Shown piece by piece: positions 3,970 through 30,910 of a stretch of DNA of 30,910 nt. Numbering within the stretch: the stretch's first letter is position 1; each line of letters begins with the position of its first letter. Under the pieces are notes generated by a model. It was not told where the DNA came from. It made no database searches and was given only the letters and a program-made list of their open reading frames with translations. Where the stretch lies: the IMG/VR virus record IMGVR_UViG_3300044545_000147. The stretch is one strand, 5' to 3'. Both the position numbers and the translations under genes were made by a program. The DNA is from an uncultured virus (IMG/VR IMGVR_UViG_3300044545_000147) (taxonomy: Duplodnaviria > Heunggongvirae > Uroviricota > Caudoviricetes).

Positions 3970-5884
3970 CAACAATCGAACACGAAACAGGCAGCGGGCA
4001 TCCTCTGAACCGGTGGTACGGACATCGGTAAGAGATGCCTTTCAAAATGCATTGGCACGGTTGGGAGCGGGAATGCCAAACCTGTTGGAAGGAACTTCCT
4101 ATCCAATGACCAGGCTGACAAGAAACTTCAATCTTCTGAATAGTCTATACCGGTCCCACTGGGTGGTACGCCGTATTGTGGATACTATTCCCCAGGACAT
4201 GTGTAAAAACTGGATACAAATCACATCCAAACTGACACCACAATTATTGGACAAAGCCATAGCGGAAGAAAGACATATCCAGCTGTCCAGGAATATCCTA
4301 AAGGGACTTCGGTGGGGGCGCCTGTATGGTGGAGCTATCGGGTTAATGCTCATTAAAGGACAGGGAGATGATTTGTCCCAGCCGCTGGATCTTGATCGAA
4401 TTATGCCGGGAGACTTTGTAGGGATTATGGTATTGGACCGGTGGAATGGCTGCTATCCATCCATGGACGTATGCAGTGATATTAGTGACCCGGAATTCGG
4501 GCTTCCTGAGTATTACTATGTGACGGATCCGGAAACACAGATGAATATCAATATCCATCACAGCCGCATACTCCGGTTTGAAGGATTGGAACTTCCCTAC
4601 TGGGAATCTCTGGCGGAACAATATTGGGGTGCATCCGTAGTGGAAGTGGTATTTGATGAATTGAGGAAGCGGGATAATGTCTCCTGGAATATTGCACAGC
4701 TGACTTTCATGGCGCAGATGAGAGTCATGAAAGTCAAGGATCTGGATCAGATGTTGTCCACCCTTGATCCGGAAGCGGTGAAGCAGATATATTCCACAAT
4801 GGAAATGCAGAATTGGCTGCTGTCTAATTCCGGCATGCAGCTGATGGGGACTGATGATGATTTTGTAACGCATCAGTATACCTTTTCCGGAATTGCGGAT
4901 GTATATGATAAGTTCATGCTGGATGTATCCGGCGCAGCTGAAATACCTGTTACTAAATTATTTGGAAGATCTCCGGCAGGCATGAACGCTACAGGAGAAT
5001 CAGATCTGCAGAATTACTATGACATGATTGAGGAGAAACAGGAATCAGTCATGCGGCCGATTCTGGATAAAGTAATGCCGGTTCATGCCATGTCATCATG
5101 GGGATTTATTCCTGATGACATGGACTATAAATTTAATCCGGTGCAGAGAACGACACAGGAGAAGCTGGCCAATATCGTTCAGCAGAGGACAACAGCCGTT
5201 CTGGATGCATATAATGCAGGATTGATTGGACGGCAGACTGCACTGAAAGAACTGCAGCAGATGAAGGATGAAACCGGTATGTGGTCTAATATCACCGACG
5301 ATGAAATAGAAGAGGCTGATGACAGACCCCAGATCACTGCAGGAGAGAGTGAATCAGATCCGGCACCGACATTGGAAGAAGCATTGCAGAAAAAGGTGAA
5401 TGACGCTGACTGGGAAGAGAGCAAACATTCCCGGAGAGATGACGGGAAATTTGGGGCAGGCAGCGGAGCGGGTGAATTGGATAAAAAGCATTGGAATTCA
5501 CAAATATCCAGTCGGGTCTTGGGAAAAGAAATTAAGGGGGTAAAAGGAGAAAATGCCGTTAATGCATTATTGAAACAGAAGTCTGGATATGTAAAAGATG
5601 CATTTACGAGGGATGATATCGGTGGTATTGATTTGATGTGGGGAAATGATTGCTTTGGACTCCAACATATTATTAAAAGGAGATCAGAACAACACGAAGA
5701 TATCCAGGCGGTTTTAACTCATTTAAGTGATGTAGTAGAAAAAGGAGAATTGCATCGTGGAATTAAGGGGAAAATGATTATTGAGAAAGATGGACAAAGA
5801 GCTATCATAGCCCCTGATTTTTGTGGGGAAGATATTCGATTTCTTATATCATCTTACGAAATGACCAATAAAAAAAGACTTTGA
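3959..5884 (+). CDS. Portal protein (DUF1073/HI1409 type) with C-terminal KHxRxxxGKF linker and putative BECR-fold (PBECR1-like) endoribonuclease domain
   Basis: LYRSHWVVRRIVDTIPQDM, GRLYGGA, IHHSRILRF, AAEIPVTKLFGRSPAGMNATGESDLQNYYD portal motifs; extra ~160 aa with AFTRDDIGGIDLMWGN..GLQHII. Confidence 0.9.
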   Translation: MHRNNNRTRNRQRASSEPVVRTSVRDAFQNALARLGAGMPNLLEGTSYPMTRLTRNFNLLNSLYRSHWVVRRIVDTIPQDMCKNWIQITSKLTPQLLDKAIAEERHIQLSRNILKGLRWGRLYGGAIGLMLIKGQGDDLSQPLDLDRIMPGDFVGIMVLDRWNGCYPSMDVCSDISDPEFGLPEYYYVTDPETQMNINIHHSRILRFEGLELPYWESLAEQYWGASVVEVVFDELRKRDNVSWNIAQLTFMAQMRVMKVKDLDQMLSTLDPEAVKQIYSTMEMQNWLLSNSGMQLMGTDDDFVTHQYTFSGIADVYDKFMLDVSGAAEIPVTKLFGRSPAGMNATGESDLQNYYDMIEEKQESVMRPILDKVMPVHAMSSWGFIPDDMDYKFNPVQRTTQEKLANIVQQRTTAVLDAYNAGLIGRQTALKELQQMKDETGMWSNITDDEIEEADDRPQITAGESESDPAPTLEEALQKKVNDADWEESKHSRRDDGKFGAGSGAGELDKKHWNSQISSRVLGKEIKGVKGENAVNALLKQKSGYVKDAFTRDDIGGIDLMWGNDCFGLQHIIKRRSEQHEDIQAVLTHLSDVVEKGELHRGIKGKMIIEKDGQRAIIAPDFCGEDIRFLISSYEMTNKKRL

Positions 5885-5962
5885 GAAACCCAAAGACTCT
5901 TGACTAATTGGATTTTATGAGCAAATAGGACATTTCTTCTGCTCAACTCAAAGACTTTTCTT
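5870..5962 (-). ncRNA. Candidate ~95-nt antisense small RNA downstream of the portal RNase domain
   Basis: Minus-strand extended -10 at 5977-5969, internal hairpin 5945-5918, terminator hairpin 5898-5876 followed by the U7 run (5876-5870); both stems gain G-U pairs only on the minus strand. Confidence 0.5.
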
Positions 5963-5968
5963 ATTTAT

Positions 5969-5977
5969 ATTATACCA
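5969..5977 (-). promoter_or_regulatory. Extended -10 promoter (TG-G-TATAAT) on the minus strand
   Basis: Plus strand ATTATACCA = minus TGGTATAAT, perfect consensus; no good -35. Confidence 0.6.
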
Positions 5978-5991
5978 CGGAAGGGAACGAC

Positions 5992-6819
5992 ATGAAGCTT
6001 GATAAATGGAGCCTGCGGCAGCGGATTGAAAAAGACTATGCCAATGCCATAAAAAAACTGACAGACCGGCTGCTGCATAAAATGGGTACTGAAACAGATC
6101 CAACGGCCTTCAAACAAAAAATCCGAGCCATGGCCCGATCCCCTACCTTTACAGAGGCAGCGGAGAAAGCGGCACTGGCCATGCTGACACAGCTGGCGGA
6201 AGACAATGCCCGCACATGGAGGGAAGCTGCCCGGCATAGTTCTAAAGGTCGGATTCTGTACGATGCCATACAGAATGAACTTCATAAAAAATTGGACCGG
6301 CAGTATTGGGAGATTATTTCCAGAAATGCAGACTATATCAAATCACTTCCTGATGAACTGGCGGAAATAGCCAGCCGGCGGGCAGCGGAGAATGCTCTGT
6401 CAGGAAGAAGAGCATCGGATATTATTCCGGAGATTATGGAAATGTATCCCGGACTTGCAAAAAGCCATGCCCGCCTGATAGCCCGGACAGAGACCAGTAA
6501 GGCACAATCCGCGTTGACACGGACACGGGCGGAAAGCATCGGTATCAATTGGTATGAATGGAAAACATCGGAGGACAGCCGGGTGCGCAGCAGTCACCGG
6601 CATATGGATGGAGTACTGATCCGTTTTGACAACCCTCCGGCGCCGGAAACTTTGATTGGTATGAAATCCCAGGGACATTATAACGCCGGGGATATATATA
6701 ACTGTCGATGCTACGCGGCTCCGCTGACAGAAATTGATAACGTCAGTTGGCCGCATAAAGTCTACTATGGCGGACGTATTGTGAAAATGACACGGGTACA
6801 GTTTCAGAAAATTGAATGA
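5992..6819 (+). CDS. MuF/SPP1 gp7-like minor head protein (short form, no toxin extension)
   Basis: ARLIARTETSKA, WKTSEDSRVRSSH, AGDIYNCRC motifs. Confidence 0.93.
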   Translation: MKLDKWSLRQRIEKDYANAIKKLTDRLLHKMGTETDPTAFKQKIRAMARSPTFTEAAEKAALAMLTQLAEDNARTWREAARHSSKGRILYDAIQNELHKKLDRQYWEIISRNADYIKSLPDELAEIASRRAAENALSGRRASDIIPEIMEMYPGLAKSHARLIARTETSKAQSALTRTRAESIGINWYEWKTSEDSRVRSSHRHMDGVLIRFDNPPAPETLIGMKSQGHYNAGDIYNCRCYAAPLTEIDNVSWPHKVYYGGRIVKMTRVQFQKIE

Positions 6820-6835
6820 AAGGATGTGATGCTAT

Positions 6836-8071
6836 TTGTCTGTTGCATATTACGGGTCCCGTATATCAGACCACATTACAATGACTCCGGAGGGATATCT
6901 TGTCTGCCATGATGTACCTATAGCCAGAACGGGGACTCAGAACTATTTGGGAAGAGAGACACCAGACCCGGAAATTAATCCAGAAGCCATTGTGCCGGTA
7001 AACCGTCCGGACGAGGAAGTCTTTTCAAAAGCGGCACTGGCATCTTTTGAAGGAAAACCGGTTACGGATAATCATCCGATGGAAGACATTACATCCCAAA
7101 ATGTATCTGTATACATGAAAGGGATTGTTAAAAATGTTCATCACGGGGCCGAAGAATTCCAGGACTGCATTGTAGGGGATTTGATTATTTATGATCCTAT
7201 GCTGGTCAAATCTATTCAGAATGGAAAACGGGAAATTTCCTGCGGATATAACTGCCTGTGGGATCCAGACGGCAAAGGATATACGCAACGGGAAATCAGA
7301 GGCAATCATGTGGCCATAGTGGATAAAGGAAGGGCCGGTGCAAAAGTTTCAATTCATGACTCAAAACCAGAAGGAGGAAGAAAAAGAATGGGTAAAAAAA
7401 GTTTACTTGGGAGGATTTTATCATCTTTCGCCAAAGATGCAGATCCGGAAGAACTGGCTGAAGCCAGCAAAATGCTTCATGCAGCGGATGAACTTCCGGA
7501 AGCGGGTGCTCCTGCGCCGACCACGAAAGAAGAACCGAAGGAAGTACAGGATGAAGGTCCTGATATCAATGCCCTTATGGAAAAAATTGATGCTCTGTCT
7601 GCTAAGGTGGATGCCATTGTGTCTGCCGAAAAGAAAGAGCCGGAACATCAGGATGATGAAATAAGCACTCTTGATGCATTGGAAGGAGAACTGACCGGAG
7701 AAAGGAAAGAGTCTGCTGCGGAACAGGAAAAGAAAGAAGAAGTCCCTGTTGAGGATGTGCAGGATGAAGAGCCGGCAGCGGAATCTGATCTTCCTAAAAA
7801 TCCGATGACACAGGAAGTCAAAGACGCCGCCATTCAGACAATCCGGACAATGAAGCCTCTGATTGCCGGGATTCAGGATAAAGCGCAGAGGAAAGCAGCG
7901 GCTGACTCTCTGGCTGCATTGATTCGCGGACATGCCCAGGATGCGCAGTATCAGACAGTACTGCATGCGCAGAAAAAGAAAAGTGCGCACGATTCTGCGG
8001 AAGCTGATCAGAGAAACCTGGGAAGAAATTGGATGAAAGAATTTAATCCGCATTATAAGAACAGGAAATAA
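6836..8071 (+). CDS. DUF2213 prohead protease/scaffold protein (TTG start)
   Basis: TPEGYL...VPIARTG, SFEGKPVTDNHP, REISCGY, IRGNHVAIVDKGRAG; acidic scaffold-like C-terminal half. Confidence 0.9.
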   Translation: MSVAYYGSRISDHITMTPEGYLVCHDVPIARTGTQNYLGRETPDPEINPEAIVPVNRPDEEVFSKAALASFEGKPVTDNHPMEDITSQNVSVYMKGIVKNVHHGAEEFQDCIVGDLIIYDPMLVKSIQNGKREISCGYNCLWDPDGKGYTQREIRGNHVAIVDKGRAGAKVSIHDSKPEGGRKRMGKKSLLGRILSSFAKDADPEELAEASKMLHAADELPEAGAPAPTTKEEPKEVQDEGPDINALMEKIDALSAKVDAIVSAEKKEPEHQDDEISTLDALEGELTGERKESAAEQEKKEEVPVEDVQDEEPAAESDLPKNPMTQEVKDAAIQTIRTMKPLIAGIQDKAQRKAAADSLAALIRGHAQDAQYQTVLHAQKKKSAHDSAEADQRNLGRNWMKEFNPHYKNRK

Positions 8072-23206: not shown

Positions 23207-23457
23207 GTGCTAATCTGACGGGAAAGATCAGTGGGGGGAACGCATTATCAGGGAAATTGTCTACACAGATTAAGGATGTGACGGAAATTATGCAGTATGG
23301 ATCGATCTATGAATTTCCGAATCGGGGAGTTTCTTCTACTTTGTATATTACATCTGATGAAAACGCAGCATACCGGTGGGATGAGACGGGAAGCAAATAT
23401 TTCTGTATAGGCCGTGATTACAAGGAAATTGAAAATATTTTGGGAGGAGCATTATGA
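23203..23457 (+). CDS. Small fibre-associated protein
   Basis: ATGA-coupled at both ends; FPNRG..TLYI...AYRWD motif. Confidence 0.7.
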   Translation: MSANLTGKISGGNALSGKLSTQIKDVTEIMQYGSIYEFPNRGVSSTLYITSDENAAYRWDETGSKYFCIGRDYKEIENILGGAL

Positions 23458-24509
23458 GTAAAACACTTCAAGCGACACTGCAAATCAAGAATGGAACAAA
23501 AGCGAATTGGATATCACAGAATCCCGTTTTGGCCAAAGGGGAACCAGGTCTCGAAATTGATACAGCGCATTTTAAATTTGGAGACGGTGTATCAGAATGG
23601 AATGATCTGTCCTATGCGGGAACCATTGTAAAAGTCAGTTCTACCAATGGACATCTGACGATTGATGGGACGGATGTGACAATATATGCACTTCCGACAG
23701 CAACATCCTCTGTAGTGGGCGGTGTTAAATCCCAGTCTGCAGGATCTGGGAAAATAGTTGTAGGATCTGACGGGACTATGAGTGTGTCTGATGTTCCTAC
23801 AGCGGATGCACTATCCAATGCAAGAAAGTTGACTTTTTCTGGCGATGTATCCGGTAACAACACATTTAATGGATCTCAGGATGTCACTTTTGCCCTGGCA
23901 TTGGTTTCATCGGGAGTTACTGCGGGAACATATTCTAAAGTTACGGTGACTGCAAAAGGTATTGTGACTGCGGGGACATCATTAACAGCTTCTGATATTC
24001 CGACACTCACATTATCCAAAATATCTGATGCCGGATCTGCTGCATCCAAATCTGTTGGTACAGCCGCCGGAAATGTGCCTTTGCTGGATTCCAATGGAAA
24101 ATTGGATACCAATGTGCTTCCTGCACTGGCCATATCAGAAACTCATGTGGTAGCGGATCAGGCGGCTATGCTAGCATTAGATGCTCAGGAAGGAGATATT
24201 GCAATCAGGACTGACGGTACAGGTAGTTGGATACTAACAGCTTCTCCTGCATCAACATTGGCAAATTGGAAACAATTATCGGCACCGACGGATCTGGTCA
24301 CGAGCGTGAATGGAAAGACAGGCACCGTGACTTTGACTACCGGAGATATTGCCGAAGGAGTCAATCTGTATTTTACAACTGCCAGGGCAACTACAAATTT
24401 CAATACAAATTTTGCGGCAAAAAGTGTTACAGGACTTTCCGATGGCAGCCATGTAGTGTTGGATACCGATTCTATTATTATTGACTGTGGGACGGTGTCT
24501 GGATCATGA
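23454..24509 (+). CDS. Fibre/receptor-binding protein with Mtd-N/hyaluronidase-N-like N-terminal domain
   Basis: NPVLAKGEPGLEIDT..FKFGDG..WNDL; fibre repeats LPTAT..VVGGVK, GVTAGTYSKVTV.AKG.VT, VTSVNGKTG.VTL. Confidence 0.85.
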   Translation: MSKTLQATLQIKNGTKANWISQNPVLAKGEPGLEIDTAHFKFGDGVSEWNDLSYAGTIVKVSSTNGHLTIDGTDVTIYALPTATSSVVGGVKSQSAGSGKIVVGSDGTMSVSDVPTADALSNARKLTFSGDVSGNNTFNGSQDVTFALALVSSGVTAGTYSKVTVTAKGIVTAGTSLTASDIPTLTLSKISDAGSAASKSVGTAAGNVPLLDSNGKLDTNVLPALAISETHVVADQAAMLALDAQEGDIAIRTDGTGSWILTASPASTLANWKQLSAPTDLVTSVNGKTGTVTLTTGDIAEGVNLYFTTARATTNFNTNFAAKSVTGLSDGSHVVLDTDSIIIDCGTVSGS

Positions 24510-25345
24510 GCAGAAAACTGAGTGGAGTGCTAATACAGCATAAAACAGGAACTGCTTCACAATGGACATCTGTTAATCCTACGCTGGCAAAAGGGGAAAT
24601 AGGATTTGAAACGGATACTGCTAAGGTGAAGATCGGAGATGGTGTTGCTTCATGGGAGAACCTTGCTTACATAGCATCAGGACGAGCAATCATAAACTTT
24701 CATTCATTCAATCAATTTATTATGGATGCCTCTGCAGGAAATAAAACAGCTTCCATTACCGCATTAAATAACCCATTTACTGGCAGCGGATCAATTGCAG
24801 TTACATTAGATATTTCAACTTCTGGAGTAAATGGGTTAGATACGGGAAGTGTGACATCGGGCTGGTATTATGTATTTCTCTGCTATGGTACATCAGGATT
24901 ATGCTGCTTGGCATCTGCGTCATCTACAATGCCGACGCTTCCTTCTGGATACGCACAATTTGTAAGAGTCGGCGCATTAAGATATGGAAGTTCTAATGCC
25001 TTCCAAGCATCAATTCAGCATGGAACATATTCGAAATATATAGGGAACATGTATCAGTTCGCATCCGGTTCAACTGGGGGAGAATCTACTTTTGTTGGCT
25101 ATGATATTTCGACTTATATTCCAGAAACTTCATATATTGTGGAATGTATTTTATATAATTCTTCAAATAGTGGAGGACATTCATGTAAGTTAGCATCTGA
25201 AGCATCTGTATTTACTGCTGAACTACAGGCTTTTCAATACAATCGTTTACATGCATTTATTCATCTAAATTCCCACAGTATCTATTATGCCTCAAATGAT
25301 GGTGGTTCATGGGCATCCTGTGATGGATGGATTGATAATTTATGA
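24506..25345 (+). CDS. Second Mtd-N-like fibre/receptor-binding protein
   Basis: NPTLAKGEIGFETDT.KVKIGDG..WENL; GVNGLDTG....WYYVF, PTLPSGY..RVG. Confidence 0.8.
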   Translation: MSRKLSGVLIQHKTGTASQWTSVNPTLAKGEIGFETDTAKVKIGDGVASWENLAYIASGRAIINFHSFNQFIMDASAGNKTASITALNNPFTGSGSIAVTLDISTSGVNGLDTGSVTSGWYYVFLCYGTSGLCCLASASSTMPTLPSGYAQFVRVGALRYGSSNAFQASIQHGTYSKYIGNMYQFASGSTGGESTFVGYDISTYIPETSYIVECILYNSSNSGGHSCKLASEASVFTAELQAFQYNRLHAFIHLNSHSIYYASNDGGSWASCDGWIDNL

Positions 25346-27791: not shown

Positions 27792-27918
27792 ATTGTGTGC
27801 TTATGTGATAAACTATGGTCAATATGAATATTTTGTACTGAATAGAGTGTGAATTAATTTAGCGGATCAATGATCCTGTCCTGCACAGCCGGGTTTAGTA
27901 TAAGAAGGTGGAGGATTG

Positions 27919-29847
27919 ATGGCAAAGAAAGAAGTGCGAACCGATCTTTGGGTTGCAAAGCAACTCGATGAATGCGGCATTAAATTTGATGCTCAGGGAA
28001 GCGATGTAAAGGAGCTTGATGAAGCTCTGAAGACGGCATCCAAGCGTGGGACGGGGAAGGTAGGATACCCAGAATACGTAGCCGTCATCGGTGATTTTGT
28101 CCTCGTCATCGAGGACAAGGCCGCATTGGACAAGCAGGCGAACCTGACAGAGAAGGGAATCATCGCGACGGACACGAAGTCCGTTACAGACTACGCGGTG
28201 AACGGGGCTTATTTTTATGGCAAGCATATCGCACAAAATAGCTCTTTTAAGAAGGTGTTTGCAGTTGGCGTTTCAGGTGATGAAAAACATCATATAATTA
28301 CACCATTATGGGTTGATGATCGTGAAGGATATGAACAATTGCCTAATGTGGAATCGTTCTTCTGGTTCTCGCCTGGCAATATTCGTGAGTATTACACACG
28401 TTACGTTTTAGAGGAGGCTACTGACGTTGAGAAGACAACGGAGCAGATCCTGAAAGACGCAGCGGAGCTTCACGAGTACCTGCGTACATACGGAACGTTG
28501 AAAGATCAAGATAAGCCTCTAGTTGTTGCGGGTATTCTTCTAGCTCTCGATGAAATCGAGTATGGTGGGTTCAACATTGATTTGCTGACTGGTGACCAGA
28601 TTGCGGGAAATCGTGACGGCGACAAGCTGATGAACGCCATTAAGACGCGCCTCACGCGTTCCAATGTTGGGCCGGATGCAAAGAAGGACAAGCTTCTTGC
28701 TGAGTTTGCAATCTTGCAGACCAGCTTCCGCCTGAACGAGGTCAACGGCGCGCTGGGCAAGACGCCGCTGAAGTATTACACGGAGTTCCTGTACGAGCAT
28801 GTCTTCAAGAACATCAAGTACCAGAAGACCTCCGAGGACTTTATTGGACGCTTCTATGGCGAATTCATGAGCTATTCCGGTGGCGACGGTCAGACTCTCG
28901 GAATTATCCTGACACCGCGCCACATCACCGAGCTCATGTGTGAGCTAGTGGACATTCATTCCGACGACGTGGTGCTCGACCCGACGTGCGGAACGGCGGG
29001 ATTCCTGATTTCTGCCATGCACAAGATGCTTTCCATGGCGGACAGCGAGCTGCAGCGCAAGAACATTAAGAAGGAGCAGCTTCACGGTTTCGAGCTTCAG
29101 AGCAACATGTTCGCGGTTGCCGCCGCGAATATGATTTTGCGCCGCGACGGTAACAGCAACATTGAGTGCAGTGACTTTCTGGCCAAGAACCCGGCACAGG
29201 TGCAGCTGAAGGGTGCCACGGTCGGCTTGATGAATCCTCCGTATTCACAGGGCACCAAGGCTGACCCGAGCCAGTACGAGCTGTCATTCATCGAGCACAT
29301 GCTGGATTCATTGACGGTCGGAGCCCGTGCCGCTGTCATCGTCCCTCAGTCATCCATGACGGGCAAGTCCAAGGCTGAGCAGGCGTTCAAGTACGCAATC
29401 ATGAAGCATCATACGCTTGAGGGCGTCATTACCTGCAACACGGACACATTCTACGGAGTCGGCACGAACCCGGTAATCGCCGTGTTCACGGCGCACGAGC
29501 CGCACGACAATGAACACGTATGCAAGTTCATCGACTTCCGAGACGATGGTTACGAGGTCAGGGCGCATGTCGGTCTGGTCGAGGGAGACTCTGCCAAGGA
29601 CAAGCGTCAGCACATGCTGGATGTCTGGTTTGGACGCGTCGAGGCACCATCGAAGTTCTGCGTCGAGTCAACGGTCGAGCCGGACGACGAGTGGCTGCAC
29701 AGCTTCTACTACTTCAATGACGAGATTCCGACCGATGCAGACTTCGAGAAGTCCATCGGCGACTACCTGACGTTCGAGTTCTCTATGGTCATGCAGAACC
29801 GCGAGTATCTGTTCGAGGGAGGCACTGACGATGGAAAGACTGAGTGA
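27919..29847 (+). CDS. Fused endonuclease/N6-adenine methyltransferase, BcgI-alpha-like (Type IIB-like RM)
   Basis: N-terminal GYPE...VIEDK (PD-(D/E)xK-like), motif I LDPTCGTAGFL, motif IV NPPY, LTPRHIT; about 640 aa. Confidence 0.88.
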   Translation: MAKKEVRTDLWVAKQLDECGIKFDAQGSDVKELDEALKTASKRGTGKVGYPEYVAVIGDFVLVIEDKAALDKQANLTEKGIIATDTKSVTDYAVNGAYFYGKHIAQNSSFKKVFAVGVSGDEKHHIITPLWVDDREGYEQLPNVESFFWFSPGNIREYYTRYVLEEATDVEKTTEQILKDAAELHEYLRTYGTLKDQDKPLVVAGILLALDEIEYGGFNIDLLTGDQIAGNRDGDKLMNAIKTRLTRSNVGPDAKKDKLLAEFAILQTSFRLNEVNGALGKTPLKYYTEFLYEHVFKNIKYQKTSEDFIGRFYGEFMSYSGGDGQTLGIILTPRHITELMCELVDIHSDDVVLDPTCGTAGFLISAMHKMLSMADSELQRKNIKKEQLHGFELQSNMFAVAAANMILRRDGNSNIECSDFLAKNPAQVQLKGATVGLMNPPYSQGTKADPSQYELSFIEHMLDSLTVGARAAVIVPQSSMTGKSKAEQAFKYAIMKHHTLEGVITCNTDTFYGVGTNPVIAVFTAHEPHDNEHVCKFIDFRDDGYEVRAHVGLVEGDSAKDKRQHMLDVWFGRVEAPSKFCVESTVEPDDEWLHSFYYFNDEIPTDADFEKSIGDYLTFEFSMVMQNREYLFEGGTDDGKTE

Positions 29848-30910
29848 GAAGGAATGGGGGCATTTTCTCATTCCTGACGTTTTCCCGATTATACGGCGCG
29901 GGAAGCGCCTGAAGAACGCCGACCATGTGCCGGGCATCATTCCTTATGTCTCATCGACTGCAAAGAACAATGGCGTTGATGATTACATTGAAGCAATATC
30001 AGGCACGCGTTCGTTCAGCGACTGCATTAGCCTCGCGAATAGCGGGAGTGTGGGAACAGCGTTCTATGAACCGTTTGAGTTCGTTGCGAGCGACCATGTG
30101 ACGAGCTTGAAACGTGAGAGAACGTCAAAGTTCGTGTATCTCTTCCTTGCGACGACAATCGATCGTCAGGGGTCGAATTTCAACTTCAACCGTGAGATAA
30201 ATGACGCAAGAATCAAGAAGATGCAGGTGATGCTTCCTGTCGATGACAAGGGCGAGCCTGACTATGCCTACATGACGATTTACTCCACTAAAGTGAGGCG
30301 GGGTATGCTCATGCGTTATAAGAACTTTATCGCTGCGCAACTCTCCCGGCTGGAATACAAGGACATACCGGCTCTTGTCGAGAAGGAATGGGATGAATTT
30401 TTCATTGGTGATTTATTCACAGTGAGCCGCCCAAAGGCGAGAAACAAGGATGATTACGATTTCGGCGATACACCATTCGTGGCTTCTGGCGCTTTGAATA
30501 ATGGCGTGATGAAGTGCTGTGATGTAAAGCCAGATGAATCATTGGACGCTGGCAATTGCATTACCGTAAGCCCTGTAGACGGTAGAGCTTTCTATCAACC
30601 GATGGATTTTCTTGGGCGTGGTGGCGCTGGGTCGTCAATTTTGATGCTGCGTAGTGATTGGCTTAATCTTTATTTGGGACAATTCATCGCAAGAACAGTG
30701 CAGCAAACCTGCTCGAAGTATACCTATGGGCACATGGGCAACAAAGACAGCATCAAAAGGGAACGTATTATGCTACCTGCGACCGATGCGGGAAAGCCTG
30801 ATTACGAGTATATGGATCAGTATGTGAAGAATACGATGCTACGCAAGTATGAGCAGTATTTACGGTTCATAAATATAATTTCAAGCCATAAGAAAAAATC
30901 GAATAAATAG
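29831..30910 (+). CDS. Two-TRD specificity subunit (BcgI-beta/HsdS-like)
   Basis: Duplicated EKEW..F.I.D.F ... MLP..D.G.PDY.YM halves; overlaps the MTase stop; stop codon is the last codon of the window. Confidence 0.88.
   Translation: MERLSEKEWGHFLIPDVFPIIRRGKRLKNADHVPGIIPYVSSTAKNNGVDDYIEAISGTRSFSDCISLANSGSVGTAFYEPFEFVASDHVTSLKRERTSKFVYLFLATTIDRQGSNFNFNREINDARIKKMQVMLPVDDKGEPDYAYMTIYSTKVRRGMLMRYKNFIAAQLSRLEYKDIPALVEKEWDEFFIGDLFTVSRPKARNKDDYDFGDTPFVASGALNNGVMKCCDVKPDESLDAGNCITVSPVDGRAFYQPMDFLGRGGAGSSILMLRSDWLNLYLGQFIARTVQQTCSKYTYGHMGNKDSIKRERIMLPATDAGKPDYEYMDQYVKNTMLRKYEQYLRFINIISSHKKKSNK

Follow-up and report, generated by a model that had tools for sequence, protein, structure and literature searches.

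A predicted structured RNA gene antisense to the PBECR1 domain of phage portal proteins: a conserved RNA family and possible inhibitor of the predicted nuclease

The portal gene in a DNA stretch of an uncultured Caudoviricetes virus (IMG/VR record IMGVR_UViG_3300044545_000147; 30,910 nucleotides (nt), the whole of which is called the window below) ends in a PBECR1 domain, a predicted RNase of the BECR fold. The question raised by this locus is what accompanies that domain in the 107-nt gap between the portal stop codon (TGA, 5882-5884) and the start of the following MuF gene (5992). A small immunity protein open reading frame (ORF) was not found in this gap directly 3' of the portal-PBECR1 gene, in agreement with a preliminary description, which had reported no protein immunity ORF between portal and MuF. 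Indeed, the gap contains no credible ORF, its sole frame being one of 30 amino acids (aa) with a TTG start (5854-5946). A small protein encoded within the RNA described below was rejected as a candidate, as this frame has no ribosome-binding site by eye and is unconserved among relatives. What the gap does hold, to judge from sequence, is a minus-strand gene for a structured RNA with a sigma-70-type promoter and an intrinsic terminator, predicted to be transcribed. Its parts are the following.

5991..5996, minus strand: -35-like hexamer TTCATG, weak (3/6 matches to TTGACA), 16 nt upstream of the -10 box and overlapping the MuF start codon
5969..5977, minus strand: extended -10 box TGGTATAAT, read from the sequence; the -10 is conserved in relatives
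5870..5962, minus strand: predicted small RNA of class A, about 92 nt, with a putative start near 5962 and extending through the U-run (covariance model R1, folding)
5947..5962, minus strand: 5' arm of helix P1, AAGAAAAGUCUUUGAG (fold, inverted repeat, covariation)
5918..5945, minus strand: hairpin P2, UGAGCA...UGCUCA (fold, covariation)
5887..5914, minus strand: hairpin P3, with a 14-nt loop opening with the invariant UUAGU (fold, covariation)
5870..5885, minus strand: 3' arm of P1 plus seven U residues (U7, 5876-5870), together the terminator, overlapping the portal stop codon (5882-5884) and the last portal codons

A self-contained minus-strand unit of promoter, RNA and terminator behind the portal RNase had been proposed in the preliminary description. 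All elements that it named were present, including the extended -10 box at 5977-5969, and the RNA overlaps the last codons of the RNase domain as stated, covering the last 15 nt of the portal ORF. The window promoter depends on the TGn extension of its -10 box. Taken alone, this box is at chance level (1 match in the window versus 1.43 expected; at least one in 77 of 100 shuffles), and its weight comes from the conservation of its position in relatives. Model R1, which was built from 12 relatives with the promoter region excluded, gave a sole match on the window (5872-5960, minus strand, 71 bits, E 6e-15). Furthermore, the minimum-energy fold of the minus strand (-31.7 kcal/mol, z -5.35, none of 200 shuffles as good) consisted of the same three helices P1, P2 and P3.

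The conserved fold is a three-way junction, in which P1 closes P2 and P3, the terminator being formed by P1 and the U-run. The two-hairpin fold described earlier is not the conserved one: both hairpins (5945-5918 and 5895-5879) are present, the second one being followed by U7 and listed by a terminator scan, but the relatives keep the three-way junction and not the hairpin at 5895-5879. Pairing of the RNA 5' end with the 3' arm of the terminator, noted at that time as an alternative, corresponds to the conserved P1, the arms of which are covered by a 19-nt inverted repeat (I1; 5867-5885 / 5947-5965). Similarly, the stretch taken as the 5' arm of the terminator is indeed repeated by the 5' stretch of the RNA (AGUCUUUGAG repeats AGUCUUUGGG; direct repeat D7), but it is the loop and 3' arm of P3. 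Owing to a direct repeat with 87% identity (5887-5901 / 5945-5959), the P1 3' arm can pair either with the RNA 5' end, giving P1, or with the P3 loop and 3' arm; the latter, local pairing was not seen in relatives and could be a switch or an accident. A repeat search of the gap retrieved no tandem repeat.

Opposite the PBECR1 ORFs of the relatives a common layout was found, which reads, from 5' to 3', a -10 box, about 6 nt, the P1 5' arm, P2 with a loop ending in GGUCUG, a GUAA junction, P3 with a loop starting with UUAGU, the P1 3' arm, and a U-run at the stop codon. RNAalifold applied to the 12 sequences returned 25 pairs, 23 of which showed compensatory changes. Among 15 sequences aligned to R1, 94.0% of the cells were paired, versus 63.1 +/- 1.7 in shuffled alignments (0/500 as high) and 36.9-48.6% in slid controls, and changes on both sides occurred at all 25 pairs; this alignment was fitted to the model, which favours structure, and a plain MAFFT alignment gave the same picture. 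Per helix, changes on both sides were found for 10/10 pairs of P1 (helix 1), 6/6 pairs of P2 (helix 3; 95.6% of cells paired) and 7/7 pairs of P3 (helix 4; 96.2%). In addition, A-UUAGU was invariant in 12/12 sequences, and all 12 invariant columns were located in loops or in the junction, while every stem covaried. Upstream of the model match, a -10 hexamer with at least 5/6 matches was present in 18/20 copies, located 3-8 nt before the match in 16/20, and 12/20 copies displayed a -35 box with at least 4/6 matches or a TGn extension as well; among the copies lacking a promoter is the second member of a tandem pair. At the other end, most loci have the T-run of the unit nearest to the ORF close to the PBECR1 stop codon (about -17 to +11 nt). 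The search for a conserved reverse -10 box and covarying stems behind PBECR homologues, which had been proposed as a check, was hence positive on both counts.

Signals of this kind might also belong to no separate RNA gene, the element serving the sense message between portal and MuF as terminator, attenuator or processing site, or being a DNA hairpin at a recombination joint of the cassette or a relic that came with the nuclease from its donor. The fold is nearly symmetric and the plus strand folds too (-21.6 kcal/mol, z -3.14), a U-rich tract follows P1 on the plus strand as well, and the element sits at a cassette boundary (see below), all of which agrees with such an explanation. The strand-specific evidence points the other way. 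Among 375 pair cells, 18 were G-U and 2 were A-C, so that minus-strand folding is favoured, as had been claimed from the window by itself. With filters off, the plus strand scored 17.8-28.8 bits at sites where the minus strand scored 54-96 bits. The -10 box occurs at fixed spacing on the minus strand, often together with a good -35 box. Of 42 representatives of PBECR1 locus clusters, 25 had a generic unit of promoter, closing stem and T-run on the antisense strand, and none had one on the sense strand. A decaying relic is excluded because of the covariation across diverged loci, and the absence of a separate RNA gene is altogether very improbable.

The distribution of the RNA was followed from the nuclease domain. 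With the PBECR1 domain as query, 783 homologous proteins were retrieved from the protein library, besides 85 further viral loci; two viral contigs were identical to the window at this locus and therefore uninformative. In 95 sources (365,460 bases, both strands), all 30 R1 matches (E <= 0.01) were antisense to a PBECR1 ORF and began within about 180 nt behind its stop codon. Matches beyond the training set included those of L008/L100 (75.5 bits), L101 (65.5 bits) and L096 (54.1 bits); L008 was retrieved through MuF and not through PBECR1, and its portal carries PBECR1, followed by a gap. Related phages with nuclease-less portals gave the opposite picture, as had been asked of such a comparison: in L006, L009 and L013 (identical to L015, Megasphaera cerevisiae), the portal gene abuts or overlaps MuF, without a gap and without an RNA match. 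The RNA follows the nuclease, not the portal, since the cassette of PBECR1 and class A RNA also occurs on a different, unrelated portal family (L073:13-1857, PF04860 instead of PF06381) and since stand-alone PBECR1 genes also carry the RNA. Furthermore, contigs of a related co-occurring phage (run X8) match the window up to 5385 and from 5981 onwards and are unlike it in between. The linker, nuclease and RNA gene hence behave as one swappable cassette, the difference extending exactly over 5386-5980. The co-inheritance with the nuclease that the preliminary description had postulated is supported by both the R1 matches and this swap, and RNA and PBECR1 domain apparently form a two-part cassette that moves between phage genes.

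3959..5884, plus strand: portal gene with C-terminal PBECR1, 641 aa (ORF call and Pfam)
5600..5872, plus strand: PBECR1 domain, predicted BECR-fold RNase, aa 548-638 (Pfam)
5386..5980, no strand: low-GC cassette of linker, PBECR1 domain and RNA gene up to the -10 box (GC content, contigs of run X8)
5992..6819, plus strand: MuF-like head protein gene, context outside the cassette (Phage_Mu_F, E 1.1e-16)

The GC content is 0.345-0.375 across 5500-5999, versus 0.43-0.53 on either side, which is the AT-rich composition that the RNA had been said to share with the RNase domain.

A second class of RNAs, class B (model R2), was found in the same position behind PBECR1 ORFs. It has a similar three-way-junction architecture with different loops; its P2 is short, its P3 is rich in G, and the stretch GACA.CAGAAA is invariant. 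In this class, 98.0% of cells were paired, versus 74.9 in shuffled alignments, 15/19 pairs covaried, and 23/23 matches were antisense to PBECR1.

Class B loci: L025:1923-2278 (minus strand), L026, L034, L040, L044, L045, L047, L082, L097, L031:2005-2093 and L043:2008-2096

Several loci carry more than one unit. Four class B units, one of them weak (24.5 bits), are arranged in tandem at L025:1923-2278; two class-A-like units, the second one without its own promoter, occur at L022:1858-2031; and mixed arrays are found at L043:1872-2235 (order A-B-A) and L031:1872-2093 (B-A). Altogether, the 86 PBECR1 loci form 44 clusters, of which 14 have class A only, 10 class B only, 2 both and 18 neither. 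An R1 or R2 match was present in 17 of the 18 clusters with a portal-PBECR1 fusion confirmed by Pfam, the exception being L024, with only a 25.8-bit match with filters off. As a separate observation, the MuF-related phages L010 (1645-1835) and L011 (1467-1757) have portal proteins with a long additional C-terminal part to which no Pfam family corresponds. In both, the portal gene is separated from MuF by a gap of 190-290 nt and, next, an unassigned ORF of 389-415 aa; neither RNA model matches there.

Rfam 15 is expected to include the abiF motif. A search of the window region 5500-6300 against it (E <= 10) gave only two snoRNA chance rows, far below the gathering scores, and ten related loci, five of them class B, gave no match at E <= 1, ribozymes and the phi29 packaging RNA (pRNA) included; no match for class B was thus found among these loci. 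Class A is an undescribed conserved RNA family, and the two classes add two covarying RNA families, neither of which is in Rfam.

PBECR domains are among the commonest predicted effectors of phage virion and polyvalent proteins. The window domain (PF18809; aa 548-638) matched with 42 bits against a curated cut-off of 27.6 (E 1.4e-10), which it passes, and the portal protein contains further only the Phage_portal_3 family (E 2.3e-114, aa 60-414), no third Pfam family being detected. In alignments, the domain retains the conserved His570, which is invariant there, and Arg575, and has a Ser at the nearly invariant C-terminal Thr/Ser position of the family. Its structure model (pLDDT 86.7) has as top fold match the CdiA-CT toxin 7m5f_C (E 5.4e-3, TM 0.40), followed by the RelE, HigB and YafQ toxins, all with weak scores, and a sequence search of solved structures retrieved only the same CdiA toxin (7m5f_C, E 0.32). 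By their titles, a protein antitoxin or immunity partner is present in most of the fold-matched structures. Portal-PBECR fusions had already been noted by Iyer et al., in whose PBECR passages PBECR1 is a predicted BECR-fold RNase, its activity being a prediction only, and no immunity partner is mentioned (PMC5512222).

The RNA may be an inhibitor of the PBECR1 RNase, that is, its "immunity" determinant or antitoxin, a tentative explanation that is put at slightly less than an even chance. The folded RNA would bind PBECR1 through its invariant nucleotides, namely the end of the P2 loop (GGUCUG), the junction (GUAA) and the start of the P3 loop (UUAGU), and the cell producing the phage would be spared RNase activity up to the moment when the protein is incorporated into the capsid. 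In this role, the RNA would serve as an antitoxin in the place held by protein immunity genes behind other phage and polymorphic toxins. The preliminary description had placed this action in the lysogen, which finds no support in the window, a structural module without lysogeny genes.

Several observations weigh against such an inhibitor. Firstly, the RNase activity of PBECR1 is itself predicted only. Secondly, 18 of the 44 clusters have no match to R1 or R2, many of them showing, by eye, other units of promoter, RNA and terminator. Thirdly, PBECR1 was found in 7 of 401 genomes of the class of a Megasphaera genome and neither RNA at any of these seven loci; four loci were inspected, three of which were intact with PBECR1 not C-terminal, the frame of the fourth being broken. 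Class A RNA was detected in none of 151 genomes of that class, a result that shows the specificity of the model and not an absence. Fourthly, 54 matches resulted from scanning viral contigs for the RNA pattern without regard to proteins, and the eight loci confirmed by the model were seven known PBECR1 loci and L114. The latter carries a full-length class A copy (L114:970-1061, minus strand, 71.7 bits) at a distance of about 260 nt from where a serine recombinase gene ends, and no PBECR1 match was found in its 27-kb viral record (53% complete). By eye, this copy has no clear promoter or U-run, and it may represent an orphan within a lysogeny module. Fifthly, the joint occurrence of classes A and B in L031 and L043 is not explained by a model of one RNA per toxin. 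Sixthly, the RNA classes are clustered when placed on the PBECR1 tree (8 changes versus 23.5 when shuffled), which is not evidence of co-evolution, because simple linkage gives the same. Lastly, no RNA run was listed as containing this stretch, and runs X19 and X20, labelled RNA-Seq and probably DNA, gave contigs only for 4951-5636 and 6807-6966, covering parts of the portal and scaffold genes only, with none over the RNA gene. Unrelated to this balance, one genome of the Megasphaera genome's class contains three copies of a repeat of about 29 nt, with spacers, directly after a 548-aa ORF with an internal PBECR1 (L106:1649-1850), which looks like a CRISPR array; CRISPR RNAs as possible targets of PBECR domains were a speculation of Iyer et al. 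(PMC5512222).

Some of the same observations suit an RNA that is a partner of the nuclease and not its inhibitor: a substrate of PBECR1, a packaged cofactor or chaperone, or a decoy against host defences or nucleases of rival phages, the linkage then reflecting joint deployment instead of self-protection. The linkage and the conserved loops support such a partner as much as an inhibitor, classes A and B occur together, units form arrays, and the lone L114 copy beside a recombinase would suit a protective decoy carried without the toxin. The PBECR passages of Iyer et al. point in the same direction, with the suggestion that PBECR domains answer RNA-based defences of the host (PMC5512222). Conversely, nothing indicates a specific target, similarity and complementarity to 23S rRNA not exceeding those of shuffled sequences, and the alignment shows no variable single-stranded segment that could be used as a guide. 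Two related ideas were rejected: mimicry of or pairing with 23S rRNA, inspired by a short class B motif recalling the sarcin-ricin loop, gave alignment scores equal to those of shuffles, and a likeness of some P2 loops to the 16S decoding-site region, noticed by eye, concerned a motif that is unconserved across members. A partner role other than inhibition is rated as rather improbable.

The main rival is a cis-antisense regulator, judged unlikely, if slightly less so than a non-inhibitory partner. The RNA would pair with the late message running from portal to MuF or with the 3' end of a stand-alone PBECR1 mRNA, with cleavage or decay as the outcome of duplex formation, or else transcription would be disturbed by the convergent promoter; either effect would limit expression of the nuclease, as 3'-overlapping type I antitoxin RNAs do. 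Its geometry fits: the RNA is convergent, its terminator lies on or next to the PBECR1 stop codon at most loci, the window promoter overlaps the MuF ribosome site and start codon, and the sense message of portal fusions must hold the full complement. Presumably, the start of the P3 loop (UUAG) also fits the YUNR U-turn motif of antisense RNA loops. Against this stand the 12 invariant loop and junction positions, combined with covarying stems across diverged phages, which are left unexplained because any sequence would give a cis-antisense RNA complementarity to its target. Moreover, the overlap with coding sequence is limited to about 15 nt, fusions and stand-alone genes have different neighbouring genes, and the tandem arrays and the L114 copy away from PBECR1 fit poorly. 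No trans pairing site above shuffles was found in the PBECR1 coding region of 11 loci (z -1.65 to +1.41) with an unrestricted duplex method, which is a crude one. The conserved loops with covarying stems, the arrays of units, the constitutive-type promoter and the lack of an ORF suit an RNA that binds protein more than one acting by antisense pairing alone.

A wider generalization, that phages guard against their own capsid-borne BECR-fold RNases with structured RNAs and not with proteins, appears doubtful. It would amount to a new, widespread pairing of toxin and RNA immunity with at least two RNA classes, the units of which can be stacked or carried alone like orphan immunity genes. If it holds, lone or arrayed units could give prophages immunity against injected nucleases of rival phages. 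In any case, a conserved RNA partner offers a direct experimental handle on PBECR, through co-expression, pull-down or a structure of the complex.

As for its surroundings, the window represents the structural module of a tailed phage, with all genes on the plus strand according to Pfam and ORF calls. Pfam identified the small and large terminase, portal, MuF, scaffold (DUF2213), cement and major capsid genes, followed by the genes for a neck protein, a DUF3383-family protein, baseplate, tail fibres and a GH25 lysin, and then type I restriction-modification genes. Two adjoining ORFs of the tail-fibre region (23454-25345) each start with a major tropism determinant (Mtd_N) domain, a pair that hints at a target of a diversity-generating retroelement. 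The methylase and specificity genes of the type I restriction-modification system (27916-30910), located after the GH25 lysin at the end of the structural and lysis module, could be phage cargo or host flank. In GenBank, no similar phage DNA was found, and the only protein matches were to distant polyvalent proteins of Helicobacter and Campylobacter prophages.

Compared with known systems, the arrangement first recalls type I toxin-antitoxin (TA) systems with 3'-overlapping convergent RNAs, such as par of pAD1, txpA/RatA and bsrG/SR4, many of which occur in prophages. The shared trait is a convergent RNA with its own promoter, the 3' end of which (here 5870-5884) overlaps the end of the toxin gene. 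Type I toxins are small membrane peptides and their RNAs act by base pairing, whereas the partner here is an RNase-fold domain of about 130 aa in a 641-aa portal protein and not a small hydrophobic peptide, only about 15 nt of its ORF are covered, and the loops are conserved instead of the paired regions. A second candidate is phi29 pRNA, likewise a portal-linked RNA of a phage with a three-way junction as its core. Although these two traits are shared, the present RNA has no Rfam match, follows PBECR1 into stand-alone genes and two portal families, and is absent behind three nuclease-less portals.

Thirdly, in the MuF and polymorphic-toxin cassettes, the toxin domain likewise forms the variable C-terminus of a conserved head protein and is exchanged as a cassette, with a protective determinant directly behind it. 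In those cassettes, the trunk is MuF and the determinant is a small protein ORF, which follows the toxin gene for 89.4% of 191 MuF toxin genes of temperate phages (PMC5576092), whereas here the trunk is the portal and a structured RNA gene lies in that place. The lack of an immunity ORF behind a toxin domain should hence prompt a search for an RNA. In the literature found, no description of an RNA partner of PBECR domains was encountered, nor any publication linking type III systems or RNA antitoxins with BECR.

A likeness in kind also exists with type III TA systems (ToxIN, CptIN and TenpIN). They too combine an endoribonuclease with an adjoining non-coding RNA gene, thought to neutralize it by direct binding, and have links with phages; some relatives here carry two to four tandem RNA units of 75-100 nt, also convergent. 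In type III systems, however, the RNA lies upstream on the same strand and is co-transcribed, whereas here it is convergent, downstream and provided with its own promoter; it is an array of short repeats there and one three-way junction of about 92 nt here; and the toxins are ToxN/AbiQ, CptN and TenpN there and a BECR-fold domain fused to a virion protein here. The present system resembles type III TA without being a member, differing in array, orientation and toxin family. Lastly, the AbiF toxin of a Clostridioides difficile prophage is reported to be neutralized by direct contact with RCd22, a structured non-repeat RNA, and its RNA motif had been known from comparative genomics before the function was found. 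The likeness consists of a phage-borne toxic protein and a structured RNA, proposed here as the inhibitor; the differences concern the protein family (Abi_2/AbiD/F versus PBECR1), the RNA and its placement (PMC12373285). If the RNA described here does inhibit its nuclease, RNA antitoxins, represented by AbiF and three type III families, would also reach the large BECR toxin superfamily and effectors delivered by virions.

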